64,000 nucleotides of DNA, taken from the NCBI GenBank assembly GCA_027294455.1, contig JAPULZ010000079.1:10-64009 (forward strand), in the 5' to 3' direction. Shown one piece after another: positions 34,313-47,739 of this stretch; the stretch's first letter is position 1; each line of letters starts with the position of its first letter. This stretch comes from Gemmatimonadota bacterium (GTDB lineage: Bacteria > Gemmatimonadota > Gemmatimonadetes > Gemmatimonadales > GWC2-71-9). The translations under genes were made by a program, and so were the position numbers. The notes beneath the pieces were generated by a model that worked only from the letters and a program-made list of their open reading frames with translations, did no database searches and had not been told where the DNA came from.

Positions 34313-34621
34313 TCAGTATGCCCGCGCGCTGCCTCCGGCGCGGTCCGCCACGCCAATCCAACCGTTACCCCCACGGCCAATGGCCGCGATCTCGGCACTG
34401 TACACCGTGCGTTCGACCAGCGTGTGACCCATCGCCTGCAACCGGCTGATAGTGCCCGGGAACAAGCCACCGGGTTGGTACACGATCTCGTCGGGCAGGG
34501 ATTGGTGATGCACGCGGGGGGCCGTCGCAGCGGCATCTCGTCCAACTGGTGGACCGCCACACCCCGCCAGCACGGGGCTCAACCCGAGCAAGACGCGGGT
34601 CCCGGGTTCGAAACGGCGCAC
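34313..34621 (-). pseudogene. ggt: Internally deleted gamma-glutamyltranspeptidase remnant
   Basis: Lipoprotein-like N-terminus (LAGC) joined to GGT C-terminal APRVHHQSLPDEI...LQAMGH...WIGVADR..GSARAY; catalytic core absent. Confidence 0.7.
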
Positions 34622-34711
34622 CAGGGAAGTGCCATTTTCCGCTCCATCTCCTACCTTCTTCGTTTCACGTACCTGTGTGCCGAGTCATACTGCTGCCTTG
34701 AAGAGGGGCCA

Positions 34712-35644
34712 ATGGCACGAAAGCCGGATTTTCTCGACGAGCGGCTCACCGAGCGACGGAATCCCCGGACCACCGACATCGACGTGGCGTCGAGCGAAGT
34801 GATCGTCGACCTCATGCACGCCGAGGACCGCCGCGTCGCCGCCGCCGTTTATGCCCAGAGGGCCCAGATCGCCCAGGCGATCGAACTCGCCACGAAGGCG
34901 ATCCGGCAGGGCGGTCGACTCGTGTATGTGGGTGCGGGGACCAGCGGTCGACTCGGAGTGCTGGACGCTGCCGAATGCCCCCCCACGTTCGGCACGCCGC
35001 CCGAGATGGTCGTCGGGATCATCGCCGGTGGGTCGCCGGCTCTCACCCGGTCGCAGGAAGGGGCGGAGGACGATGCCGACGCGGCCGCCGCCGACATCGA
35101 GCAGGCAGGCGTATCCCAGCGGGACTTCGTCCTGGGCACCGCCGCCAGCGGCACCACGCCCTATGTCAGTGCCGCCCTCGAGCGGGCCAAAGCCCTGGGC
35201 GCAGCGGTTGGCCTGCTCACCTGTTCCCCCGCGCAGGAGGGCCTCGCCGCCGCGTGCGACGTGCGCATCCTCGTCGCGACGGGGCCCGAAGCCCTCACTG
35301 GATCGACCAGGCTGAAGGCGGGAACCGCAACGAAGTTGATCCTCAATACGATCTCCACCGGCACCATGCTCCGGCTCGGCAAGGCCTACGGCAATCTCAT
35401 GGTCGATCTGGTGGCGATGAGCGACAAACTGGTGGACCGGGGCGAGCGGGTGGTCATGGAGGCCACCGGCACGAATCGGGAGGAGGCCAGGCAGGCCATC
35501 CAGCGGGCGGGCGGCAGGGTCAAGCTGGCAATTGTCATGGTGCTGAAGAGCGTCGATGCCGAGGAAGCGACGCGGCTCCTGGCAGACGCCGGAGGGATCG
35601 TGCGAAAGGTCGTGGGGGATCCGCCGCCGGTCGTATCTCCCTAA
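34712..35644 (+). CDS. murQ: N-acetylmuramic acid 6-phosphate etherase
   Basis: TERRNP, GAGTSGRLG.LDAAECPPTFG, EGAED, GPEALTGSTRLKAGTATK, NLMVD. Confidence 0.97.
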   Translation: MARKPDFLDERLTERRNPRTTDIDVASSEVIVDLMHAEDRRVAAAVYAQRAQIAQAIELATKAIRQGGRLVYVGAGTSGRLGVLDAAECPPTFGTPPEMVVGIIAGGSPALTRSQEGAEDDADAAAADIEQAGVSQRDFVLGTAASGTTPYVSAALERAKALGAAVGLLTCSPAQEGLAAACDVRILVATGPEALTGSTRLKAGTATKLILNTISTGTMLRLGKAYGNLMVDLVAMSDKLVDRGERVVMEATGTNREEARQAIQRAGGRVKLAIVMVLKSVDAEEATRLLADAGGIVRKVVGDPPPVVSP

Positions 35645-35706: not shown

Positions 35707-37119
35707 TTAGCGGATCCCCTCCAGCAGGGTGCGCGCATGCCCGGCCGGTACGGCGTACACCAGGCGCCCCCCGGTTCCTTCCTCGCCGCCGTAGAGGATC
35801 CCGATCACGAGACCGTTGGCGTCGAAGACCGGGCTGCCGCTGGCGCCGTGCGTGCCGTAGCCGTTGATCTGGATCAGGTTCGGGAGATTCTTGCTCAGGG
35901 TGCCCACCGTGAGGCTCGCCGTGGCGTAGGTGCCGCCGTCCAGCATCCGCTGGGGGCTGTCCACGCCTCCGGGGAAGCCGATCACGGCGACCGGTGCACC
36001 CACCGCCACGGTGTCCGGCCGGCCGTTGAATCCGAGGACGACGGGGACGGGACCGGCCAGCTCGACCTTGAGCAGGGCCAGGTCGATGTCTTCCTCACGT
36101 GACACCGCCACCACCCGGGCCGCGAACGTCTGCTGAGAATCGGCAAACCGCACGCCGATTTGCACGGGACGCAATGTGCCGTCCCGGCCGGCGATCACGT
36201 GACGATTGGTGATCATCGTGCCATCGGAGCGGACGGCGAAGGCGGTGCTGGTCTCGACGTGGGACCCGAAGTCCACGAACACCATGGCGATGGCGCGCAG
36301 GTTCGCACGGGTGATGCCCGCGAAGTCGATGCGGGCGGCGTGTTGTTGCTGTGCGACGGCCGTGAGCGCGGTCTCCAACTCGGCGCTCAAGACCTCGATC
36401 CGCTCCCGATTTCCGGCGTCACGAGCGTCGGACAACTGCTGCTGGAGTGACTGGAGATCCTGTTGCGACATGCGGAGTGCGCTCGCCAGTTCCTGCATCT
36501 CGCCCTGCAGCGCCGTGGTCGTGGTGCGAGCATCGCGCAACACGCTGTTGATGCGTGCTTGCAGCTGGATGATCTCCTCTTCCCGCGTGAGGCGTTGCTG
36601 GCGGTTGACGAACACGAGGCCGCCGCTCACGAGCACCAAGGCCACTGTGACCGACATCGTGATCCGTCGCATCTGCTTCGTCTGACGGGCGACTTCGACC
36701 CGGACGCGTTGGGTGGTGCTCGATCGCCGAGCAGGGGTTGCGCCCGCACTCGCCGGCGCCGCGGCGGCGGCCGGGCGCGCCGGCATCTCGCCCGTGTCGG
36801 GGATGGTGTCCGCGACGAGCCGGAACTCGATGGTCGGGCCGGCGGCGCCGAACCGGATTTGGTCGGTGTCGTCGAGCTTGGTATCGGATTGGATCCGGTG
36901 ACCGTTGACCAGCGTGCCGTTGCTGCTGCCGAGGTCGCGGACGAACCAGCGGTTGTCCCGTCGGATGATTTCGGCGTGACGTCCGGAGACTTCGAGGGCG
37001 GTTTGGGGATTGAACTGGAGGTCGGATTCGGGGTGCCGGCCGATGGCGATCCGCTCTTTGGAGAGGACACGGATGATGCCCGCCTGGTCTCCCTTGATGA
37101 CCTTGAGTTGGACTTTCAC
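35707..37119 (-). CDS. FHA-TM-coiled-coil-trypsin-like (S1) serine protease
   Basis: FHA IGRH/VSGRHA/DLGSSNGT; one TM; heptad region; triad TNRHV, DLALL, GASGSP. Confidence 0.9.
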   Translation of the reverse strand: MKVQLKVIKGDQAGIIRVLSKERIAIGRHPESDLQFNPQTALEVSGRHAEIIRRDNRWFVRDLGSSNGTLVNGHRIQSDTKLDDTDQIRFGAAGPTIEFRLVADTIPDTGEMPARPAAAAAPASAGATPARRSSTTQRVRVEVARQTKQMRRITMSVTVALVLVSGGLVFVNRQQRLTREEEIIQLQARINSVLRDARTTTTALQGEMQELASALRMSQQDLQSLQQQLSDARDAGNRERIEVLSAELETALTAVAQQQHAARIDFAGITRANLRAIAMVFVDFGSHVETSTAFAVRSDGTMITNRHVIAGRDGTLRPVQIGVRFADSQQTFAARVVAVSREEDIDLALLKVELAGPVPVVLGFNGRPDTVAVGAPVAVIGFPGGVDSPQRMLDGGTYATASLTVGTLSKNLPNLIQINGYGTHGASGSPVFDANGLVIGILYGGEEGTGGRLVYAVPAGHARTLLEGIR

Positions 37120-37135
37120 GTACGGCGCGCCGCGT

Positions 37136-38161
37136 CTAAGCGGCGAGGATCAAGGCGACGGCCATGATCATCGCAGTTGCTAGCGTGGCGATCACCATCT
37201 GTTTGACATCGCTGGGTGGAGGCGAATCGTTTCCCTCATAGACGGGAACCGGTTCGGTGGTGGAGTCGCCGTCGAGGAGTGGGTACACGGCGCGGCCCAC
37301 CGATTCGCCGTCGGTGGCGGCCTTGAGTGCGTCACCGTTGATACGCGCGACGACGGCGGTGATGTTGTCGGGTCCGCCCCGCTCATTTGCGAGATCGATC
37401 AGCGCCCCGCACGCGACGACGAGATCTTCGTTCTTGGTCACGGCTTCGGCGATTTCCTCGGCCGACACGAGGCCCGACAACCCGTCCGAGCACACCACCA
37501 CGGTGTCGCCCTTGCAGATCTCCTGGTGCGTGAGATCGACGCGGACACGGGGATCCGGGCCGAGGGCCTGCAGGATGATGTTCTTGCGTTCGCTCCTCTC
37601 GGCCTCTTCGGCGGTGAGCTCGCCGGCATCGACGAGTCGTTGCATCAGCGATTGGTCTTTGGTGAGCTGTGTGGCCTCGCCGTGCCGCACGAGATACGCG
37701 CGGGAATCCCCCACCTGTGTCAGAAACAGACCGTCACTCAGAATGCCCACCGCGGTCGTGGTCGTGCCCATGCCCCGGTGGTCCGGATTCTGCTTGGCGT
37801 GTTCGTGAATCTTGTGGTTGGCGTCCTCCACGGCCTCGCGGAGGCGAAACGCGAACTGCTGGGGGGTGTTGTCCGTGTCGGTCACCCAATGGGTCTTGAG
37901 GTGTTCGTACACCGTTTCGGTCGCCATCTCACTCGCGACCTCCCCCGCCGCCGCTCCGCCCATGCCGTCGGCGACCATGAGCAGCGATCCCTTCGGTCCC
38001 AGCACGTGTTCCCGCACCTCGGGCAGCAGCGATGCGCGTCCCTGCGAGAGATCCGCAACGAGAAAGCTGTCCTCGTTATGGTCGCGCTGCTTGCCGACAT
38101 CGGTCCGTGCGAACACCGATACCTTGATGGACGATTCTTTCTTGGTTCCGAAGAGGCTCAC
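37136..38161 (-). CDS. PP2C/Stp1 Ser/Thr phosphatase with C-terminal membrane anchor
   Basis: RTDVG..RDHNED, VADGMGG, MGTT, VGDSRAY, CSDGL, GGPDNIT; GTG overlaps kinase stop. Confidence 0.94.
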   Translation of the reverse strand: MSLFGTKKESSIKVSVFARTDVGKQRDHNEDSFLVADLSQGRASLLPEVREHVLGPKGSLLMVADGMGGAAAGEVASEMATETVYEHLKTHWVTDTDNTPQQFAFRLREAVEDANHKIHEHAKQNPDHRGMGTTTTAVGILSDGLFLTQVGDSRAYLVRHGEATQLTKDQSLMQRLVDAGELTAEEAERSERKNIILQALGPDPRVRVDLTHQEICKGDTVVVCSDGLSGLVSAEEIAEAVTKNEDLVVACGALIDLANERGGPDNITAVVARINGDALKAATDGESVGRAVYPLLDGDSTTEPVPVYEGNDSPPPSDVKQMVIATLATAMIMAVALILAA

Positions 38162-39918
38162 GAGCCCCCTCCACGGCTGAGGTCGTCGACGAGTTGCTGG
38201 TATGCGGTGCTGCCTGGTTCCTCGCTCAGGGCCCGGCGTGCCCACTCGAGCGCGTTCAAACGGTCGTTCGATTTGCTAAACGCGATGGCGACGACGTACG
38301 CCGCGGTGGCTTTGTCCTTGGCCGCCATGCCGGTGGCGTTGAAATAGGCCACCGCGGTGTCGCGGACCGCGGCGTGGTCGTTGCTTGCCTCGTCGAGCCG
38401 GAACAACATGTCCAAGAGGTGCTCGTCCGCGCCAGCCGGCACCAACCACGCAGGATTCGTCGGTGTGGGGTCCACGCGCCGGCCAGCGGGGGATCCACCA
38501 TCGCCGGATCGCTCGTCGCCCGCGTTCGGATTTCCGCTGGCGGTCCTTCCGCCTTGGTCCGGGGTGGTTTGTCCCCCGGCCTGCGGGCGTTCCCCTCCCT
38601 CCGGCGAACCTGCGCTCGCTGCGGAATCTGATTCTGTGCCGCTGGTCACATTGTTCGCCAGGGCCAGGCTATCCGGCGGAGCGGCATCGCTCCCGTTGCC
38701 GTTCCCCATCACGACTGTGGCCCCGGCCCCGCCCACCACGAGCGCGCCGACCACCGCGGCAATCGCCCCTACCGAGCGCCTCTTGCGCGGGCCCGGCGCG
38801 GACGCCGGCATCGGCGTCATCGGGGTAGTGGGCGAGGGCGCTTGGCCGGAGATGCGCGTCCTCGGAATCACCGCGGTGCCGTGTGGCCCCACGGCCTCCT
38901 GCGGCGGGTTCCGTTGATGGGTATCGACGAGCTGGGTGGCGCCCGCCGCGTCGAGTGGGGCCGCAGTGGGATCGGCAATGCCCGCCACGGCGTTCACCGC
39001 GTCGCGTCCGAACTCCGCGGCGCTCGCGTACCGGTCCGACGGCATGCGCTGGAGGGCGCGGTCGAGGCTCTGCTGCAAACCTGCCGGGTATGCGCGGCCG
39101 GACCTGGCCTCGTTCAGCTTGAGCGGATCGTCGGTGAGCCGCTTGACCATGATTTCCTGGGCGCTGTCGGCCTGGAAGGGCAGCAGCCCGGTCAGCATCC
39201 GGAAGAACACGAGACCCAGCGAATAGATGTCGCTGCGCCCGTCCACGGGATCACCGGAGAGCTGTTCCGGACTCATGTACTCGGGGGTCCCCACCACGAG
39301 ACCGGTACGCGTGACATTCTGTTTCTCGTCGCCGCCCATCGCCTTGGCGATACCGAAATCGACCACCTTGACCACGTCGCTGCCGTCACGGGCCCTGGCG
39401 ATCATGATGTTGTCGGGTTTGAGATCCCGGTGAACGATGCCCAGCTCGTTCGCGGCTTCGAGGGCCTGGGCGGCTTGTTCGAGAATGTTGGCGGCGCGCT
39501 TGGGCGCCAACGCGCCCTCGCGATTGATGATGTCGATGAGGGCCTCACCCTCGATGAACTCCATGGCGAGGTAGATGACACCGTCGTCGGTCTCGCCGAA
39601 GTCGTAGATCGCGCAGACGCTGGGATGGTTGATGCGGGCGGCGTTGGCGGCCTCACGGTTGAAGCGGGCGATGGCATCCGCGTCCTCGGCCATGGATTTG
39701 GCCATGACCTTGATGGCGCTCTTGCGGCCCATCTTCACGTGCTCGCCGAGATAGACGGTTCCCATCCCGCCCTCGCCGAGTTTGGTCAGGATGCGGTAGG
39801 CGGCCACGACGCCGCCCACCAGGTCGGCCGACGTGGTGGACCGGAGCGAAGCGCCATCGAGCGGGCAGAAGCTTTGATTGTCCGGATATTCTCTTCCGCA
39901 GGTCGTGCAAACTTTCAC
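38158..39918 (-). CDS. Hanks-type Ser/Thr kinase: zinc ribbon, kinase, TM, C-terminal TPR-like helices
   Basis: CTTC...FCPLDG; LGEGGMG, AIK, HRDLKPDN, DFG, GTPEYMSPE; TM VGAIAAVVGALVVGG; ALEWARRAL..EP. Confidence 0.93.
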   Translation of the reverse strand: MKVCTTCGREYPDNQSFCPLDGASLRSTTSADLVGGVVAAYRILTKLGEGGMGTVYLGEHVKMGRKSAIKVMAKSMAEDADAIARFNREAANAARINHPSVCAIYDFGETDDGVIYLAMEFIEGEALIDIINREGALAPKRAANILEQAAQALEAANELGIVHRDLKPDNIMIARARDGSDVVKVVDFGIAKAMGGDEKQNVTRTGLVVGTPEYMSPEQLSGDPVDGRSDIYSLGLVFFRMLTGLLPFQADSAQEIMVKRLTDDPLKLNEARSGRAYPAGLQQSLDRALQRMPSDRYASAAEFGRDAVNAVAGIADPTAAPLDAAGATQLVDTHQRNPPQEAVGPHGTAVIPRTRISGQAPSPTTPMTPMPASAPGPRKRRSVGAIAAVVGALVVGGAGATVVMGNGNGSDAAPPDSLALANNVTSGTESDSAASAGSPEGGERPQAGGQTTPDQGGRTASGNPNAGDERSGDGGSPAGRRVDPTPTNPAWLVPAGADEHLLDMLFRLDEASNDHAAVRDTAVAYFNATGMAAKDKATAAYVVAIAFSKSNDRLNALEWARRALSEEPGSTAYQQLVDDLSRGGGS

Positions 39919-40790
39919 GGCAGATCCACTCGAAGCATCTTGTCTCCTACCAGGATGCGGGAATGCTGGGTCAGCTGGATGCTGCCGCGCACGTTCACCG
40001 CGACACCATTGCGACTGTCGGCATCGATCAGCACGAAGTCCGCGTCGTCCGATTGGATCTGCGCGTGCAATCCGCTCATCGAAGGGTCGTACGAAAAAAT
40101 CCAATCACCCTGATCCCGTCCGATCGTGAGGTTCCTGCCCGGCGACAGGTGCATGACGTCGCGTGCGCTCCCGTCACTGCGGGTTTGCGTGAGGGTTGCG
40201 ATGTCCGCGCTGGGCGTCAGGCTGCCGAGACGCCGGGTTGCGTCCGCTTCCGGAGGATGCGGCCCCGGGTATCCCAGGCGGCGGAATCGGAAAATCTGTG
40301 ACCCTACGAGCACCAGATCACCGTCGGTGAGTTTGTACGGTGCTTCGATGAAGAACCACGTTCCGTTTCGGCTTCCCAGGTCCCGCACCGACAGCACGCC
40401 ATCCTCGAGTATCAGCTCGGCGTGTCGGGGCGACAGGTACCGATCATCCGGGAAATCAATATCGGCTCCGTCGCGGCCGATGGTCGTGGTCTTCGTCACA
40501 ATCGGATGGGTACTCAGCTCCTGCCCGGTTTCGTCGAGGCGGGTGAGGACGATCCCGGTATCGACGGCGGGTGTGTGCATCGAGGACGTACGCCGGTGGG
40601 CCCGGGCGCCGGAGTCGAGCCCGTAACCGCACTCGGGGCAGAACTTGGCATGGGGACCGGCGGCCGAGGAACACTTCGGGCACAAGCGGGAATCCTCGGT
40701 CTTATCCAGCTGGGAGCCGCAGCCGGGGCAATAGGGCAGGCCGGGCGTGAGTCCCGTCTTGCAGATGGGACACTGGGACGCCTCTCTCAT
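39915..40790 (-). CDS. Double zinc ribbon plus two FHA domains (adaptor)
   Basis: CPIC/CPGC/CPKC/CPEC; FHA1 IGR/SPRH/SRNG; FHA2 IGR/SGLH/SRNG; AAGGGG before ATG 40790 (alternative 40823). Confidence 0.9.
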   Translation of the reverse strand: MREASQCPICKTGLTPGLPYCPGCGSQLDKTEDSRLCPKCSSAAGPHAKFCPECGYGLDSGARAHRRTSSMHTPAVDTGIVLTRLDETGQELSTHPIVTKTTTIGRDGADIDFPDDRYLSPRHAELILEDGVLSVRDLGSRNGTWFFIEAPYKLTDGDLVLVGSQIFRFRRLGYPGPHPPEADATRRLGSLTPSADIATLTQTRSDGSARDVMHLSPGRNLTIGRDQGDWIFSYDPSMSGLHAQIQSDDADFVLIDADSRNGVAVNVRGSIQLTQHSRILVGDKMLRVDLP

Positions 40791-40892
40791 TTGCCCCTTG
40801 GGAGCACTGAAAAGCCGGTTCATGGTAAAATCCTGGCAAAGGTCATAGCCCGTCTATATTAATGCTTCGAAACCGGGACGACAAAACACCAC

Positions 40893-42905
40893 TTGACCGC
40901 AGCTTCTTGTTCTAGCGCACCTTCCGCGATCGTGCCGGCCCCCCCCCGAACGAGCCATCCGCCGGGGAGGATCGGCGTATCATCGATGGTCGTGTTCCTC
41001 TGGGGGTGCTCCGCCGGGGTGATGACGCCCCTTTCGCCGCCGGCCCCCGTCAGGGGTCCCCTCGGGATCCAGGTTGCCTATCCCCCGCCGCAGGGGTCCC
41101 CCCTCCCGGTCACCGACGGATCTCTCATCCCAGTCGACTCGCTGTACGTGATCGGCTCGGCGGATTCGGTGTTCATCTACGGGTCGGTGGGCCGGGGAGA
41201 CGCCCGGCTGACGGTGAACGGCCGGGAGGTGCCCGTCTACCCCACGGGCGGGTGGATCGCGTGGCTGGCCGTGCCCGAGGAGTCCGTGGCGCGGTTTCGG
41301 TTGGTGGCCATCGCCGGGGGCGACACGGCCCGGGCCATCTTCGAAGCGCCGATCGCACCCCGCTTTGTCCCGCCTGAGTTGGGGGTCTGGATCGACACCG
41401 CGGCGCTGGCCCCCCGTGGAGACCGCTGGGTGAGGCCGGGCGAGGGGTATGCGTTGAGCGTTCGGGCGGTGCCGGGGGCGAGTGTGCGGGCCATCGGGCC
41501 GGGTGGCGACACCCTGGTGTTCCTGCCGGACTCCGCGGCCTCGCCCCGGGCGTGGGGATCGGAGGCGTTCGACACGGGGCGTCCTGGCACTCCTGTGCCC
41601 CTCCGCGACCGCTACGTGGCGTGGCAAGTCGGAGCCTTCGGCCCCGATCCCGGCCACGTCATGTCCCCCTGGCTGGTTCCGCCGCCGGAGGACTCGGCGT
41701 GGGTCTGGCTCGAGGTGGCCCGGAAGGCGGACACCGCGCGGTACCGCTGGCCTCTACGGGTGGGGGTCATCGAAGGCGGCGTCCCGCCGGTGGTGGTGGT
41801 GGACGACGACACGGCCCTCACCGGAGAGACGGATCGGATCCTCGCCGGCCGGCCGGTACCCTCGGGTACCTATCACTGGTTCTTCCCCAACGGTACGATG
41901 GCGGTGGTGAGCGGCCGTCAGGGCGATCAGGTCCGGCTCCAGCTTTCGAGGCGTAGTGTGGCCTGGGTGGACGCCGTGGGGGTCATACCGCTGCAGCCGG
42001 GAACCCCGCCCCCCGGCGGCGTCGCCCGCTCCATGCGCCTCGTTCCCGGTGCGGGCTGGGTGACGCTCCGGGTGCCCCTTTCCCGGCGGATCCCGTTTCG
42101 GGTGGACGAGGCGGGGCGCCGCCTCGTGGTGCGGCTGTACGGGGTCGCTGCCGACATGGATTGGATCCAGTACGGCGGGACGGATCCCTTCGTCCGGTTG
42201 ATCGAGTTCGGCCAGCCCGCAGGTGACGAAGTCGAGATAACGGTGCACCTGGCGGAATCCGTGTGGGGGTACCGCACCCGATGGGTGGGGAGCGACCTGC
42301 TGCTGGAGATTCGCCGGCCACCCGGGATCGATCCCGGGGCGCCGCTCCGGGGGCGGCGGATCGCCCTCGACCCCGGCCACCCCCCGGGAGGATCCCGCGG
42401 ACCCACCGGAGTGGCGGAGGCCCAGGTGACCCTGGAGGTTGCCCGGAAGCTGCAAACCCTCCTGGAACGAGCGGGGGCGGACGTGGTCATGATCCGGGAC
42501 GGGGTGGCCGCCGTGGGCCTGATCGAGCGCACCACCCGGGCCGAAGCCGCCGATGCCGAGATCCTCGTTTCCATTCACGCCAACGCCGTCCCCGACGGCG
42601 TGAACCCCTTTGTGAACAGCGGGACCAGTGTCTACTACTATCACCCCCGGGCCGCCGAACTGGCCCGGGAAATCAACCGGGGGCTGGTGCGGCATCTGGG
42701 GTTTCGGGACCTGGGCGTGGGACGGGGGGACCTGCATCTCGCCCGTCCCACCTGGATGCCCTCGGTGCTGGTGGAGGGCCTGTTCATCATGCTACCCGAC
42801 CAGGAGGCGGTACTGACCAGCGACGAGGGCCAATGGCGCTACGCCCGCGGGGTACATGAGGGTATAGAACGATTCTTGCTGCGAAGGCTGGAGGAACCCG
42901 GGTAG
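40893..42905 (+). CDS. N-acetylmuramoyl-L-alanine amidase (Amidase_3) with large N-terminal region, possible lipoprotein
   Basis: ALDPGH, AE, SIHANA, VLVEG zinc/catalytic motifs; FLWGC lipobox-like; start uncertain (40893/40932). Confidence 0.9.
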   Translation: MTAASCSSAPSAIVPAPPRTSHPPGRIGVSSMVVFLWGCSAGVMTPLSPPAPVRGPLGIQVAYPPPQGSPLPVTDGSLIPVDSLYVIGSADSVFIYGSVGRGDARLTVNGREVPVYPTGGWIAWLAVPEESVARFRLVAIAGGDTARAIFEAPIAPRFVPPELGVWIDTAALAPRGDRWVRPGEGYALSVRAVPGASVRAIGPGGDTLVFLPDSAASPRAWGSEAFDTGRPGTPVPLRDRYVAWQVGAFGPDPGHVMSPWLVPPPEDSAWVWLEVARKADTARYRWPLRVGVIEGGVPPVVVVDDDTALTGETDRILAGRPVPSGTYHWFFPNGTMAVVSGRQGDQVRLQLSRRSVAWVDAVGVIPLQPGTPPPGGVARSMRLVPGAGWVTLRVPLSRRIPFRVDEAGRRLVVRLYGVAADMDWIQYGGTDPFVRLIEFGQPAGDEVEITVHLAESVWGYRTRWVGSDLLLEIRRPPGIDPGAPLRGRRIALDPGHPPGGSRGPTGVAEAQVTLEVARKLQTLLERAGADVVMIRDGVAAVGLIERTTRAEAADAEILVSIHANAVPDGVNPFVNSGTSVYYYHPRAAELAREINRGLVRHLGFRDLGVGRGDLHLARPTWMPSVLVEGLFIMLPDQEAVLTSDEGQWRYARGVHEGIERFLLRRLEEPG

Positions 42906-43042: not shown

Positions 43043-44974
43043 ATGTATTGTTCTCGCTGTGGAGTTGAATCCTCAAACGAAACCAACTTCTGTCCGTCCT
43101 GCGGTCTGGATCTGGCGGCGACGACCCCTATCGCCGCCATCCGGGATCGCGGCGCCCCCGGCAAGTCCGAATTCGACATCATCAAGGACGCCCTCAAGTC
43201 CGATTACATAGTCGAGAAGGAACTGGGACGTGGGGGGATGGCCATCGTCTTGCTGGCCCGGGAGGAGGCCCTCGATCGGGAAGTCGCGCTCAAGGTCCTG
43301 CCGTTTTCCCTCTCCCACGACGACGAATTCGTAGAGCGGTTCCAGCGGGAGGCCCGAACGGCGGCCAAGCTCGAACACCCCAGCATCATTCCCATCTATC
43401 GGGTCGGGAAAACCGGCGACGTGATCTACTTCGCCATGAAGCTCCTGCGCGGCGGCTCCCTGGCCGACGTGATCGAGGAGCGCGGGTCGTTGGCCCCCGA
43501 GGAGATTCGCACGCTCATGTCGCAGTGCGCCGGCGCGCTCGGCTATGCCAACCAGCACGGCATCGTGCACCGGGACATCAAACCCGACAACATCATGTAC
43601 ACCGTTCGAGGGGTCCCGGTGCTCACGGACTTCGGCATCGCCAAGGCGGCCTCGGGCACGCGCCTCACGGGCACCGGCATGGCCATCGGGACGCCCTACT
43701 ACATGAGTCCGGAGCAGGCCAGGGCCCAACCTGTCGATGGGCGCAGCGATCTGTACTCGTTGGGGGTCGTGGCGTATCAGTGCCTGGTGGGTTCGGTACC
43801 GTTCGACGGGGAGGATTCCTTCTCCATCGGCTACAAGCACATCATGGAGGAACTCCCGACTCCCAAGTTGGAGACAGCCGAGCAGCGCGCGTTGCTGGAC
43901 ATCATCCGGCGCATGATGGCCAAGGAACCCGATGAACGATTCCAGACCGCCGACGAGCTGATCGCCGTGCTGGGCGGCGCGGTGGATGTCGCCTCCGTGT
44001 CGGCGAGCGGCTCGGGCGTCGCGGAGGCGGCCACCGTGGTCGCTCCTGTCGCCGAGGGGCCCGCCCCGGCGGCCACGGGGCCCAGCACCCCTACCACACC
44101 CATGCCTCGCTCCTCCCTGGACGCGCCGAGGGTCAGGAAGAAGAAGTCTGGCATGCTGGTGGGCGTATCGGCTGCGGTCATCGCGGGAGGCCTCGGTGGC
44201 GGCGGATATTACTATACCGCCGTGATGGGCAGGTCCCTGCCCCTCATCGGAGCCCCGTCAGGGTCGAACGAGATCGTCGTCGCCGGGGACGACTCCACGA
44301 CGGAGCGCGACCCACTGGCCATCCTGGTGGACTCCGTGGCGGTGGATTCTGCTGAGGTCGAGGACACGACCGGGGTCGAGGCCGACAGCGTTGCCGTGGA
44401 GGATACCGCCATGGTGGTGGTCGATCTCCCACCACCCGACGGCTCGCTGGCGCTCATCTTGACTCCCCGGACCTCCAGTATCACCATCGACGGCCGATCG
44501 GTTTCCGGTCTGGACCACATGCTCCCGCCGGGGTCGCATCGCGTAGCCGCCTCGGCGCCGGGGTACGTACCGGTCACCCGCAGCGTGGAGATCACCTCGG
44601 GTCAGCCGACCCGCCTCCGGATCGCGCTGGTCGAAGACGCCCCGCCGCCGCCGGTGAGCCAGTGCACGGACTTCGATCCCGACTCCTACAACCTGAACGG
44701 GGAGTGCTTCGATTCGCGAGCGCGCCCTCGGGAGACGACGCTCGTGCCCCTCACCGAGGAGATCGTCGACGTGCCCTCGATCGCAGTGCTGGCCATCAAG
44801 GTCCGAGCGGACGGCACCGCCGAGACCGTGATCCCCGTGACGCCGTCGGACAACACCGCGTTCACGATTCTGGCCCTCAACTTCGCTCTCGATCTCGACT
44901 ACCAGCCGGCCCAAAAGGACGGGCGGGCCGTGACCGCGTGGACCCAGCAGGTCTTCCACCCCAAAGCGCGCTGA
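43043..44974 (+). CDS. Hanks-type Ser/Thr kinase: zinc ribbon, kinase, TM, PEGA-like and TonB-C-like domains
   Basis: MYCSRCG..FCPSCG; LGRGGMA, ALK, HRDIKPDN, DFG, GTPYYMSPE; ITIDG...LPPGSHRV...APGY; V.ADG...YQPAQKDGRAVTAW. Confidence 0.92.
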   Translation: MYCSRCGVESSNETNFCPSCGLDLAATTPIAAIRDRGAPGKSEFDIIKDALKSDYIVEKELGRGGMAIVLLAREEALDREVALKVLPFSLSHDDEFVERFQREARTAAKLEHPSIIPIYRVGKTGDVIYFAMKLLRGGSLADVIEERGSLAPEEIRTLMSQCAGALGYANQHGIVHRDIKPDNIMYTVRGVPVLTDFGIAKAASGTRLTGTGMAIGTPYYMSPEQARAQPVDGRSDLYSLGVVAYQCLVGSVPFDGEDSFSIGYKHIMEELPTPKLETAEQRALLDIIRRMMAKEPDERFQTADELIAVLGGAVDVASVSASGSGVAEAATVVAPVAEGPAPAATGPSTPTTPMPRSSLDAPRVRKKKSGMLVGVSAAVIAGGLGGGGYYYTAVMGRSLPLIGAPSGSNEIVVAGDDSTTERDPLAILVDSVAVDSAEVEDTTGVEADSVAVEDTAMVVVDLPPPDGSLALILTPRTSSITIDGRSVSGLDHMLPPGSHRVAASAPGYVPVTRSVEITSGQPTRLRIALVEDAPPPPVSQCTDFDPDSYNLNGECFDSRARPRETTLVPLTEEIVDVPSIAVLAIKVRADGTAETVIPVTPSDNTAFTILALNFALDLDYQPAQKDGRAVTAWTQQVFHPKAR

Positions 44975-45270: not shown

Positions 45271-47739
45271 ATGGCCAAATCCTCCCCTCGAAGGGCTCCG
45301 GAATTCGGCGACAATGCCCTGACCGTCCTCAAGCGGCGGTACCTGATCAAGAATGACCAGGGGGAGCCCGCCGAGAACCCGGAGGATTTGCTCTGGAGGG
45401 TGGCCACCACGATTGCCGCGCCCGATTCTCGGTACGGTGCGAGCGATGGGGCCGTCGAGGCGTTGGCCGAAGCGTTCTATGATCTGATGACCACCCGGGT
45501 GTGGATGCCCAACAGCCCCACACTCATGAACGCGGGCCGGCCCCTGGGCCAGCTCTCCGCCTGTTTCGTATTGCCGGTGGACGACGCCCTCTCCAACGGC
45601 AAGTCGGGCATCTACGACACGCTACGCAACATGGCGCTCGTCCATCAGTCGGGTGGGGGAACGGGCTTTGGATTCTCCCGGCTTCGGCCCCGGAGCGCGA
45701 TCGTGCGCTCCACCATGGGCGTGGCCTCGGGTCCGGTGTCGTTCATGTCGCTGTACGATGCCTCGACCGAGGTCGTGAAGCAGGGGGGAACGCGCCGCGG
45801 GGCCAACATGGGGATTCTCCGCATCGATCACCCCGACATTCTCGAATTCGTCACGTGCAAAGACGACATCTCCAAGGTCACGAACTTCAACATCTCGGTG
45901 GCGGTCACCGACGCGTTCATGGAGGCGGTTGCGCAGGACGACGACTACGACCTGCTCGATCCCCGCAGCGAGCGGGTCGTGGGCTCGCTCAATGCCAGGG
46001 AAGTGTTTGCCAAGATCATCCACGGAGCGTGGAAAACAGGTGAGCCGGGGGTGTTCTTCATCGACAAGGCGAACCAGTACAACCCCGTGCCGCACCTCGG
46101 CAGCTACGAGGCCACCAATCCGTGCGGCGAACAGCCGCTGTTGCCGTACGACGTGTGCAATCTCGGGTCGGTGAACGTCGGATTGTTCGTCAAGGACGGG
46201 GATGTGGATTGGGACGGGCTGGCCAAGGCGGTCCACCTCTGTACGCATTTCCTCGAGAACGTCATCGACGCCAACAAGTACCCCTTGCCGCAGATCACGA
46301 ATCTGGCGCAGCGCATTCGCCGCATCGGCTTGGGCGTCATGGGCTGGGCGGACTTGCTGGTGACGCTCGGCATTCCGTACAGCTCCGACGAAGCCGTCGC
46401 CCTGGGGTGCAAGCTGATGCAGTTCGTGGATGAGGAGTGCAAGGTCGAAAGCGAGCGTTTGGCAAAACTCCGCGGCGTGTTCCCCGAGTGGGAGCAGAGT
46501 ATCTGGGGGCCGGACGCCACGTGCGCCCGGGACGCCGACGGGAACCGGATCCGGTCGATGCGGCGTCTGAGGAACTGCAACTTGACCACGGTGGCGCCCA
46601 CCGGGACGATCTCCATCATCGCCGGGTGTTCGTCGGGAATCGAGCCGCTCTTTGCGGTGGCGTTCATGCGGAACCAGGCCGGCGTGCTCATGCCCGACGT
46701 GAACGAGCAATTCGTCCAGATCGCCAAGCGTGAAGGCTGGTACTCCGAGGAGCTGATGACCCGCATCGCCGAGGCGGGCCACATCCACTTCGACGAGGTA
46801 CCGGAGCAGTGGCAGCGGGTGTTTGTGGCGGCCCACGACGTGACGCCCGAGTCGCACATCCGTATGCAGGCCGCCTTCCAGGAGTACACGGACAGCGCGA
46901 TTAGCAAGACGTGCAATTTTCCCCAGGGCGCCACCGAAGACGACGTGCGGCAGATCTACGAGCTGGCGCACTCGCTCAACTGCAAAGGCGTCACGGTCTA
47001 CCGCGACGGCAGCCGTGAAGGTCAGGTGCTCTCCACCGGCAGCACGGCGAAACAGGTGGCCGGCCAGCATCAAGAGGTCACTCGCGAGGGCGCCGCGGAG
47101 TTCAAGTCGCGTATCGCCGAGCTGGAAGCCGAGTTGGCCCGGACCAAGCAGACCCTCCATGAGGTGGAGAGCGAAAACCTTCAGCGGCGGGCCACGCGGT
47201 CCCGCCCCGAGCTGCTGCGGGGCACGACGCGTCGGGTGGACACGCCCATGGGCACGATGTACGTGACCATCACCGAGGACGACAAAGGCCAGCCGTTCGA
47301 GATCTTCATGAGCCTCGGCAAGGCGGGCGGCGCCTTGATGTCCGATGTCGAGGCGATCGGACGATTGGTGTCCCTGGCATTGCGCTCGGGCATCCCCCTG
47401 AGCACGATTTACCGGCAACTACGTGGCATCTCCTCCGATCGGACCATCGGGCTCGGACCGAACAAGGTCATGTCCGTCCCCGACGCGGTGGGCATCGCGC
47501 TGGAGAAGTGGATGCAGGAGAAGCAGGGTGTGCAGCAGGATCTGTTGGATAGCCCGACCGGCGACGCGGCCGTCACCGTCGTTCCCAAGGCCGAGAGCGG
47601 GCCGTCCGGCGAACTGATGCAGTACTCCCACGTGGATCACCAACTCTTCACCGGGGCCTGCCCTGATTGCGGCTCCCAGCTCGAATTCGCCGAAGGCTGC
47701 AAGAAGTGCCACACCTGTGGCTACAGCGAATGCGGTTGA
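45271..47739 (+). CDS. nrdJ: Class II (B12-dependent) ribonucleotide reductase with C-terminal TSCPD/zinc-finger domain
   Basis: PNSPTLMNAG, LSACF, GGGTG, RRGANM, TNPCGEQ, APTGTIS, KGVTVYRDG, SVPD, CPDC..CHTCGYSECG. Confidence 0.96.
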   Translation: MAKSSPRRAPEFGDNALTVLKRRYLIKNDQGEPAENPEDLLWRVATTIAAPDSRYGASDGAVEALAEAFYDLMTTRVWMPNSPTLMNAGRPLGQLSACFVLPVDDALSNGKSGIYDTLRNMALVHQSGGGTGFGFSRLRPRSAIVRSTMGVASGPVSFMSLYDASTEVVKQGGTRRGANMGILRIDHPDILEFVTCKDDISKVTNFNISVAVTDAFMEAVAQDDDYDLLDPRSERVVGSLNAREVFAKIIHGAWKTGEPGVFFIDKANQYNPVPHLGSYEATNPCGEQPLLPYDVCNLGSVNVGLFVKDGDVDWDGLAKAVHLCTHFLENVIDANKYPLPQITNLAQRIRRIGLGVMGWADLLVTLGIPYSSDEAVALGCKLMQFVDEECKVESERLAKLRGVFPEWEQSIWGPDATCARDADGNRIRSMRRLRNCNLTTVAPTGTISIIAGCSSGIEPLFAVAFMRNQAGVLMPDVNEQFVQIAKREGWYSEELMTRIAEAGHIHFDEVPEQWQRVFVAAHDVTPESHIRMQAAFQEYTDSAISKTCNFPQGATEDDVRQIYELAHSLNCKGVTVYRDGSREGQVLSTGSTAKQVAGQHQEVTREGAAEFKSRIAELEAELARTKQTLHEVESENLQRRATRSRPELLRGTTRRVDTPMGTMYVTITEDDKGQPFEIFMSLGKAGGALMSDVEAIGRLVSLALRSGIPLSTIYRQLRGISSDRTIGLGPNKVMSVPDAVGIALEKWMQEKQGVQQDLLDSPTGDAAVTVVPKAESGPSGELMQYSHVDHQLFTGACPDCGSQLEFAEGCKKCHTCGYSECG

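Follow-up and report, generated by a model that had tools for sequence, protein, structure and literature searches.

A putative four-gene phosphothreonine signalling unit of Gemmatimonadales with a predicted periplasmic, PDZ-less DegS-like protease

Triads of a Hanks-type kinase, a PP2C phosphatase and a phosphothreonine-reading FHA protein are known for the control of secretion and of cell-wall synthesis, and their FHA reader works within the cytoplasm or on the membrane's inner face. [quoted passage not shown] In a further system, LapD-LapG, a cyclic di-GMP signal in the cytoplasm is read by a membrane protein that controls a periplasmic protease. Here we describe a head-to-tail set of four genes, g1-g2-g3-g4, on the minus strand at 35707-40823 of a 64-kb stretch of DNA from a Gemmatimonadota bacterium (hereafter the window, whose numbering is used for all coordinates). 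These genes encode an FHA adaptor, a membrane kinase, a PP2C and a protein in which the FHA reader is fused through the membrane to a protease domain. The whole account rests on computation.

On balance, we regard it as probable that these genes of Gemmatimonadales form a membrane-embedded accessory module for Ser/Thr phospho-signalling, the likely effector of which is a periplasmic PDZ-less DegS-like protease. A literature search, outside which lay subscription journals and supplements, found no paper on the four-gene unit or on an FHA-protease fusion except for one architecture list (PMC2605481). This agrees with the first-pass annotation, which took the operon for the best candidate in the window for an undescribed system, and the features that define T6SS modules and PknB clusters are absent as well.

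Architecture of the four proteins

The protease gene g4 (35707-37119, minus strand) encodes 470 residues that fold, in order, into an FHA domain, a disordered linker, a TM segment, a helical stalk and an HtrA-like serine protease domain. The FHA domain covers residues 1-102 (36814-37119; Pfam FHA, 4.3e-19, 69.1 bits). The TM segment (residues 152-173; 36601-36666; score 2.31) is preceded by a basic juxtamembrane helix and followed by the stalk (residues 174-276; 36292-36600), which forms a block with a predicted local distance difference test score (pLDDT) of 82-96 in the AlphaFold2 model. The protease domain (residues 277-467; 35719-36291; Pfam Trypsin_2, 2.5e-21) possesses the triad H307, D346 and S427. 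The whole model, built from 91 orthologues, has a pLDDT of 90.9 and shows the FHA domain, TM segment, stalk and protease in this order. Its linker is disordered at residues 114-140, a single helix (138-204) runs through the membrane, and three more helices follow (209-235, 238-262 and 266-276). What the first-pass annotation had read as a coiled coil appears in the model as the helices 138-204, 209-235 and 238-262. Among the 91 orthologues, the FHA residues G27, H48, N67 and G68 are invariant (91/91) and R28 and S45 are kept in 90/91; in the triad, H307 and S427 are found in 91/91 and D346 in 86/91. These FHA and triad residues also hold once the paralogues with two FHA domains (2xFHA) join the alignment. 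The linker ahead of the TM helix bears the motif T135-T136-x-R-[V/I] (R138-V139 in the window), with R138 conserved in 66/91 and V, I or L at position 139 in 79/91 orthologues.

Structural similarity search using Foldseek revealed that the protease domain of g4 resembles DegP, HTRA1 and DegS-deltaPDZ (TMt 0.74-0.82, root-mean-square deviation 2.4-3.3). A sequence search of the PDB gave Mycobacterium tuberculosis HtrA1 as the best match (1.8e-15), with Rv3671c (2.9e-12) and human HTRA1 also near. The full-length NCBIfam models fit poorly, with 55.1 against a cut-off of 470 for HtrA and 24.8 against 422.95 for DegS, and DegP is far below its cut-off too. Pfam finds no PDZ domain in g4, and the protease domain of the model ends at residue 467 of 470. 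Compared to the HtrA/DegS (S1C) proteases, g4 thus has the chymotrypsin fold and the His-Asp-Ser triad and lacks the C-terminal PDZ domain. The FHA domain depends on phosphothreonine made by a kinase, and the TM segment has basic residues ahead of it. The FHA domain is accordingly predicted to be cytoplasmic and the protease, after one membrane pass, to face the periplasm, which supports the topology first proposed.

The kinase gene g2 (38158-39918, minus strand; 586 residues) encodes a protein in which a zinc ribbon and a kinase domain come first. A disordered juxtamembrane linker leads from them to the TM segment, beyond which lie a low-complexity linker and the TPR-like ectodomain. The kinase domain (residues 41-296; 39031-39798; Pfam Pkinase, 2.9e-50) scores 171.5 bits against the PF00069 cut-off of 31.7. 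It possesses the G-loop, the VAIK-type Lys, HRDLKPDN, DFG and an activation loop with Thr, all of which are conserved in the orthologues. The N-terminal zinc ribbon is called degenerate because its score of 19.4 bits falls below the Pfam cut-off of 25; of the zinc ribbon-kinase-TM-TPR-like order given in the first-pass annotation, the ribbon is therefore sub-threshold, whereas the kinase, the TM segment and the TPR-like model stand. With its TM segment at residues 381-406 (38701-38778; Kyte-Doolittle window score 2.22), g2 is a bitopic receptor kinase, the catalytic domain of which is cytoplasmic and the small TPR-like domain of which lies outside the membrane. Its disordered cytoplasmic linker contains a T-Q-x-hydrophobic motif (T328-Q-L-V in the window) in 17 of 21 orthologues, and a second motif, P-x-T-R (IPRT354R in the window), is located C-terminal to it.

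On the other side of the membrane, a low-complexity stretch of about 75-90 residues rich in Ser, Thr and Pro links the TM segment to the TPR-like domain (residues 480-586; 38161-38481). This domain was modelled by AlphaFold2 as five helices with a pLDDT of 91.1 and a predicted template-modelling score of 0.83. No Pfam family, TPR included, matches the g2 C-terminus. Nevertheless, the best Foldseek matches are TPR proteins (Cpr7, TMq 0.69; STI-1, 0.66), all with E >0.001. A wider structural search gave TPR proteins with Z of 9.3-12.8, including BF1650 (12.2) and the idealised TPR 1na3 (11.9), in a range below about 13 that is common for helical repeats generally. The alignment shows a W..RA..LDP.N..Y pattern. 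The confident model and its best matches back the earlier description of this C-terminus, and we keep the term "TPR-like" because such structural scores are ordinary for helical repeats.

Two side observations concern the g2 orthologues. Many of their ectodomains, from at least six loci, carry two C-terminal Cys residues about 25-30 residues apart, a pair that is missing from the g2 of the window; the pair would fit a periplasmic disulfide. In one relative with a single-contig genome, g2 is matched in two pieces (residues 1-360 and 366-583), and the longest of its open reading frames showed no TM segment on scanning; the kinase gene of this relative may be frameshifted.

The first gene of the operon, g1 (39915-40823, minus strand; 302 residues), consists of a double zinc ribbon (residues 18-66; Pfam DZR, 3.8e-08) and two FHA domains, FHA1 (~113-174) and FHA2 (~230-296), connected by a conserved linker (Pfam FHA in two stretches, 1.7e-22, 80.1 bits). 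The linker together with FHA2 (residues 170-302) is the best-conserved part in the orthologue alignment. A Kyte-Doolittle window scan found no hydrophobic segment, and g1 is predicted from its sequence to be a soluble cytoplasmic adaptor with two phosphothreonine-binding FHA domains. Both g1 and g4 score above the PF00498 cut-off and retain the phosphothreonine-binding Arg, Ser and Asn. As the first-pass annotation had noted, the GR, SxxH and NG motifs are intact in all three FHA domains, two in g1 and one in g4, and they are conserved among the orthologues.

The phosphatase gene g3 (37136-38161, minus strand; 341 residues) encodes an Stp1/IreP-type PP2C (Pfam PP2C_2, 2.4e-16), which passes the equivalog cut-off of NCBIfam NF033484 with 237.7 against 230 bits over residues 20-272. 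It is considered tail-anchored because its hydrophobic segment (residues 319-341; 37139-37207; Kyte-Doolittle score 2.55) sits at the extreme C-terminus. Just ahead of this anchor lies the motif VYPLLD..STTEPVPVY (residues 292-310; 37232-37288), which is sharply conserved in a set of relatives as VYPL(I/L)D.E(S/T)TEPVPVY(K/R)G. Three g3 orthologues of family f3 have no hydrophobic tail; their C-terminus is KKKWWPF or KKKWWKF, which may hold them on the membrane in another manner. Taken together, the domain searches returned what had been proposed for the four proteins, DZR and two FHA domains in g1, Pkinase in g2, PP2C in g3 and FHA plus Trypsin_2 in g4. Sequence, profile scores and orthologue conservation likewise agree with the claim of intact kinase, phosphatase and protease motifs.

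The four genes are tightly packed. The GTG start of g2 overlaps the g1 stop codon as GTGA, the GTG start of g3 overlaps the g2 stop in the same way, and g4 starts with a GTG 16 nt past the TAG of g3; open reading frames and sequence thus bear out the first-pass picture of four co-directional genes with two GTGA overlaps and one 16-nt gap. The operon end was at that stage placed at 40790, which is indeed an in-frame ATG of g1, the second one (Met12), whereas the longest g1 open reading frame begins at the ATG at 40823. The alignment of same-genus orthologues begins at residue 1 and that of more distant ones at residues 14-18, which leaves 11 codons of doubt about the start of g1. A consensus scan for terminator-like sites came back empty for the minus strand within the operon; the three sites returned are all on the plus strand, against 3.9 expected by chance. 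The start-stop overlap of g1 and g2 is kept in relatives, and the tblastn coordinates of the two genes adjoin at seven of their loci.

Distribution, co-occurrence and neighbourhood

A full-length relative of g4 is present in most of 41 close genomes. Across the phylum, where the tallies take in three unpublished genomes, a match with E of 1e-25 or below was obtained in 80 of 201 sampled genomes. By family, the matches amount to 64/96 in f1, 11/38 in f2, 3/3 in f3, 1/3 in f8 and 0/60 in eight other families, and within the phylum the g4 family was detected almost exclusively in one order. Two f1 genera are without a match (0/16 and 0/8 genomes). An exhaustive profile-free search retrieved 280 clusters (50% identity) at E 1e-30 or better, and the FHA plus Trypsin_2 clusters in the protein atlas belong mainly to Gemmatimonadota and Acidobacteriota. 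A tblastn search of 72,556 plasmids gave no match to g4. A search of sequencing data listed 20 DNA sets with the locus, which are mostly labelled marine sediment or sediment metagenome, and not a single RNA set.

The gene order is conserved. In 20 loci anchored on g4, which come from three families of one order, g3 and g2 are located upstream in 20/20 and g1 in 18/20; one of the two loci without g1 stops at a contig end and the other truly lacks it. The expected conservation of the four-gene order was thus found at 18 of 20 protease-anchored loci, within Gemmatimonadales. To avoid picking loci through g4 itself, the PP2C was then used as the anchor. This gave 80 loci, all from Gemmatimonadota metagenome-assembled genomes. 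Flanks of at least 3.4 kb upstream and at least 1.44 kb downstream were required; 60 loci were kept and 20 with shorter flanks were dropped. Gene presence was called from tblastn matches of the window proteins (E 1e-6 or better) that lay within fixed distances, a rule under which very divergent or relocated copies would escape. All four genes are present at 25 loci and the PP2C alone at 24. The remaining loci have g2-g3-g4 (5), g3-g4 (3), g1-g2-g3 (1), g1-g3-g4 (1) or the PP2C with a g1 fragment (1). Of the loci labelled Gemmatimonas sp., two have the complete set and two just the PP2C. Of the loci with g2, 30/31 also have g4, and of those with g4, 30/34 also have g2.

On a quick PP2C tree, these states require at least 6 changes for g1, 8 for g2 and 11 for g4. 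Among independent pairs that differ in g2, g4 differs in the same way in 3.4 pairs on average, in the opposite way in 0 and not at all in 1.6. These patterns are suggestive of g1, g2 and g4 coming and going jointly while the PP2C and the divergent amidase gene next door remain. Retained at 24/60 loci without g1, g2 and g4, the PP2C resembles a housekeeping phosphatase in shared use, and g1, g2 and g4 look like an accessory module plugged into it. The circuit had earlier been called self-contained, which the many loci with the PP2C alone make doubtful. Because loci with g4 and without g2 exist, g4 is evidently able to work with a kinase encoded elsewhere.

By tblastn, the 4.2 Mb of this genome contain about 77 Hanks kinase loci, 5 PP2C, at least 11 FHA and 5 trypsin-like loci. 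Three further genes have the FHA-TM-helical-Trypsin_2 architecture, four with g4. Two of them (C133:1997-4186 and C18:4628-6700) encode two FHA domains, a TM segment, a long helical part and Trypsin_2, and each lies beside a divergent kinase gene. The product of this neighbour is soluble and has two kinase-like domains, the first of which is weaker and possibly a pseudokinase. The pairing of 2xFHA protease and tandem kinase occurs at 9/9 f1 loci, namely those of 7 relatives plus the two copies of this genome. A kinase beside an FHA-protease is therefore a recurring arrangement in family f1 and not a universal one. The fourth gene (C53:5074-6708) has insertions in the protease domain and is convergent with a cardiolipin-synthase-like PLDc_2 gene. 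Elsewhere in the genome, FHA domains are joined with an EAL domain and with a GAF-adenylate/guanylate cyclase (L123:3480-4700, minus strand; L124:1826-3421, plus strand); several outputs thus seem to be connected to the reading of phosphothreonine.

Divergent from g1 lies the gene of an Amidase_3 protein (40893-42905, plus strand; 670 residues), the catalytic domain of which spans residues 490-659 and matches LytH (7tj4_B, 5.1e-09) and AmiA/AmiC. It has a lipobox-like FLWGC, which suggests a lipoprotein, and an N-terminal region of about 440 residues; no Pfam family was found in the first ~490 residues (40893-42362), which include this region. This amidase is the divergent neighbour at 43/49 loci, 21/25 with all four genes and 22/24 with the PP2C only. 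It is followed by a second zinc-ribbon Hanks kinase (43043-44974, plus strand), whose C-terminal part is PEGA/CarboxypepD_reg-like and whose end weakly resembles TonB_C; no TM segment emerged from a hydrophobicity scan of it. Next comes the large subunit of a class II-type ribonucleotide reductase (45271-47739, plus strand), which has TSCPD as its C-terminal domain and is syntenic with the kinase and amidase in most relatives. In five genomes without g4, where g1 and g2 are gone as well, the amidase stands beside the PP2C in 5/5 with the SIS gene nearby, and the second kinase and the reductase are found in 3/5 each. Given that it lies near the PP2C and the amidase at 3/5 of these listed loci, the second kinase may be the primary partner of the PP2C, which appears to be shared with it and to be older at the locus than the module.

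Downstream of g4 and convergent with it is an SIS-domain gene of the GKRP/MurQ type (34424-35644, plus strand), for which MurQ is a name that we assume; its true start is probably near 34700, since relatives match from about residue 95. Beyond it lie genes for a DsbD-like membrane protein, an arginase-family protein, Fur and PriA. No SEDS or PBP gene is present on the contig of the window, and all PF01098 and PF00905 matches of the genome are on five other contigs. The T6SS sheath TssC/VipB (PF05943) was not found in the genome, which is 94.3% complete. Both results agree with the first-pass annotation, which had seen neither a secretion apparatus nor SEDS/PBP genes at the locus. Its description of surroundings without wall synthesis holds for SEDS and PBP and has to be qualified for the amidase, a near-constant neighbour, and for the MurQ/GKRP-type gene downstream.

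A possible inside-to-outside route and its alternatives

In the mechanism that we propose, g2 would phosphorylate conserved Thr residues in disordered juxtamembrane segments, namely T328-Q-L-V in g2 itself and T135/T136-x-R-V/I in g4. A hydrophobic residue stands at position +3 in both; FHA domains favour phosphothreonine with a hydrophobic residue at this position, and TQ sites are favoured by mycobacterial kinases. As leads only, these motifs are candidate docking sites. Once they are phosphorylated, the FHA domains of g1 and g4 would dock on them, and the docking would gather g4 at the kinase or link g4 molecules head to tail. The gathered protease would then be switched on or positioned in the periplasm; gathering would matter because HtrA proteases work as trimers. 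The PP2C g3 would remove the phospho-marks and reset the system. As the marks would be written inside and the protease lies outside, the signal would run from inside to outside, and phosphothreonine would be the sole visible regulatory input to g4, given the loss of the DegS-type PDZ sensor. We infer proteolysis to be the output of the module. The nearest candidate substrates are the neighbouring amidase and the kinase's own ectodomain; the amidase is the most attractive candidate, which stays, however, where the module is lost.

Several observations weigh against this reading. The sign test for joint loss is not significant (median p 0.25), and with just 5 supported pairs it is unable to reach significance. 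Partial sets occur with g3 and g4 (3 loci), with g1, g3 and g4 (1) and with g1, g2 and g3 (1). Some adjacency to kinases is expected by chance, because the genome has about 77 Hanks kinase loci. The 2xFHA paralogues of families f2 and f3 have no kinase within ~5 kb (0/6 loci), and the 11.7-kb contig C53, with the fourth FHA-protease gene, carries none either. In the g4 linker, Thr is found in just 49/91 (T135) and 38/91 (T136) orthologues. The tail motif of g3 is bound to a clade, being present in 11/24 recovered tails from all-four loci and 0/23 from PP2C-only loci, and is gone from the sister clade that lost g1, g2 and g4; it was rejected as a module marker or docking evidence because it tracks one clade.

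The module might instead control a cell-wall hydrolase, with the TPR-like domain binding or activating the Amidase_3 lipoprotein, the protease degrading or processing it, and amidase activity following the balance of kinase and phosphatase. This proposal may hold together with the mechanism above, since it just names a substrate. It draws on the amidase's place beside 43 of 49 all-four or PP2C-only loci, the likeness of its catalytic domain to LytH and AmiA/AmiC, the MurQ/GKRP-type gene downstream, and M. tuberculosis HtrA1 as the best PDB sequence match of the g4 protease. The TPR-like fold of the g2 ectodomain adds to it, as does the ActH TPR chain (7tj4_A) among its weak matches (rank 31, E 0.17). 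ActH-LytH (10.1101/2022.01.21.477235) and HtrA-Ami3 (PMC6538288) offer precedents. However, the amidase stays at 22/24 loci devoid of g1, g2 and g4 and is to that extent independent of the module, its adjacency is to the PP2C and not specifically to g2 or g4, and TPR domains are all so alike that dozens of other matches are at least as good as that to ActH. We rate control of the amidase as rather unlikely. Shedding of the receptor is less probable still: g4, recruited to the phosphorylated kinase, would cut the g2 linker or TPR-like domain and so end or reset signalling. The co-occurrence of g2 and g4 (30/31 g2 loci) is in its favour, the low-complexity linker of ~75-90 residues would be accessible to a protease, and FHA docking on the kinase would set the protease beside it. 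On the other hand, g4 occurs without g2 at 4/34 loci, and the tandem kinases with which the FHA-protease paralogues are paired are soluble and so offer no ectodomain for cleavage.

A looser association would also produce part of the pattern. Here g4 would be a general envelope quality-control protease that its FHA domain only places near kinases, and the four genes would be neighbours by descent and a shared promoter. The abundance of kinase (~77) and FHA (at least 11) loci in 4.2 Mb, the fusion of FHA to EAL and GAF-cyclase outputs, the partial gene sets and the clearly shared PP2C are all compatible with this. It is nevertheless unlikely in the face of the all-or-none pattern (25 all-four against 24 PP2C-only of 60 loci) with repeated changes on the tree, the g1/g2 start-stop overlap conserved at the loci of seven relatives, and the second, independent and conserved kinase/FHA-protease pairing in family f1. 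A role in conflict, in which infection sensed by the kinase triggers a destructive protease, is highly improbable. In PADLOC, g2 matches the generic kinase models PD-T4-6 and mad6, and g4 matches protease domains from RT-Protease_XI, PDC-M35A and LmuA, but these are domain-level matches as for any Hanks kinase or trypsin-like domain. Neither g1 nor g3 matches anything in PADLOC and no full system set is present, so that membership in its known defence systems was rejected. Moreover, the locus is syntenic with housekeeping genes (ribonucleotide reductase, amidase, SIS, DsbD-like and arginase) in three families and is not a variable island, g4 is without a match on plasmids, and the protease is predicted to face the periplasm, away from phage replication.

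We therefore retain an accessory phospho-signalling module with a periplasmic protease as effector. Its fullest form, a kinase-gated inside-out switch that serves cell-wall remodelling, goes considerably further: phosphothreonine would assemble the FHA-tethered, PDZ-less proteases into active periplasmic oligomers that process the neighbouring amidase or its regulators, the TPR-like ectodomain would sense or hold this amidase, and FHA-TM-protease fusions would be a general and so far unrecognised outward route for Ser/Thr phosphorylation signals in bacteria. This elaboration is fairly improbable as a whole. If the module works as proposed, periplasmic proteolysis would be controlled from inside the cell, for which few cases such as LapD-LapG are known. 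It would also give a function to a family of 280 clusters in a little-studied phylum of soil and sediment. The natural contrast among close relatives with and without the module (25 and 24 of 60 loci) would be useful for substrate hunting.

Comparison with known systems

The combination of FHA and trypsin-like domains has been listed before. In a 2008 survey (PMC2605481), FHA-FHA-Trypsin is given for one Bacteroides thetaiotaomicron protein under "metabolism and signalling". Its FHA part is N-terminal to the trypsin-like domain, an arrangement shared with g4 and most of all with the 2xFHA paralogues; that entry gives the architecture alone, without operon, topology or function. A paper in eLife from 2020 (PMC7159879) mentions FHA just as a sporadic effector domain and holds nothing on the present system.

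Similar to DegS, g4 has the protease fold and triad and one N-terminal TM helix in the inner membrane, with a predicted periplasm-facing protease. They differ in that g4 lacks the PDZ domain and has a cytoplasmic FHA domain as its regulatory domain, so that it would be controlled from within the cell instead of by unfolded outer-membrane proteins. With LapD-LapG, the proposed module would share the logic of a cytoplasmic signal, a membrane reader and a periplasmic protease. The signal in the present case would be phosphothreonine, the reader and the protease are one polypeptide, and the two systems have no domains in common.

The TPRs of ActH activate the LytH amidase of Staphylococcus aureus (10.1101/2022.01.21.477235), and HtrA removes the amidase Ami3 in Mycobacterium smegmatis (PMC6538288). 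The present locus likewise brings together a membrane-anchored extracytoplasmic TPR-like domain, a protease and an Amidase_3 protein, a likeness of fold and gene neighbourhood only. Compared to g2, however, ActH is a rhomboid without a kinase, and neither of the two systems has an FHA domain.

The T6SS pathway and the four-gene unit both have the triad of kinase, PP2C and FHA protein, and the TagH model matches g1 and g4 weakly (42.9 and 43.1 bits). These scores are far below the cut-off of 120.25, g2 has no vWA ectodomain, and membership in a T6SS module was rejected, as PF05943 was not found in the genome. The likeness to the actinobacterial cluster extends to a membrane Hanks kinase, a membrane-anchored PP2C, FHA proteins of which one is membrane-anchored, and a gene for a wall enzyme next door. 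The best FHA matches are GarA/OdhI, FhaA (TB39.8) and EmbR, together with the FhaB_Rv0019c model. Despite this, rodA and pbpA are missing from the unit and from the contig, and g2 has no PASTA domains, its ectodomain being all-helical and TPR-like. The PknB_PASTA_kin model (NF033483) reaches 318.9 against 450 through the kinase part only, the FhaB model of NCBIfam scores 61.8 and 70.8 against 125, and the membrane FHA protein bears a protease that is predicted to be periplasmic. Membership in the PknB/PstP/FhaA/rodA/pbpA cluster was rejected on the missing SEDS/PBP genes, the missing PASTA domains and the sub-cut-off scores. Altogether, the unit resembles the T6SS and mycobacterial triads yet fails the defining features of both, and is neither a T6SS module nor a mycobacterial PknB/PstP/FhaA module.

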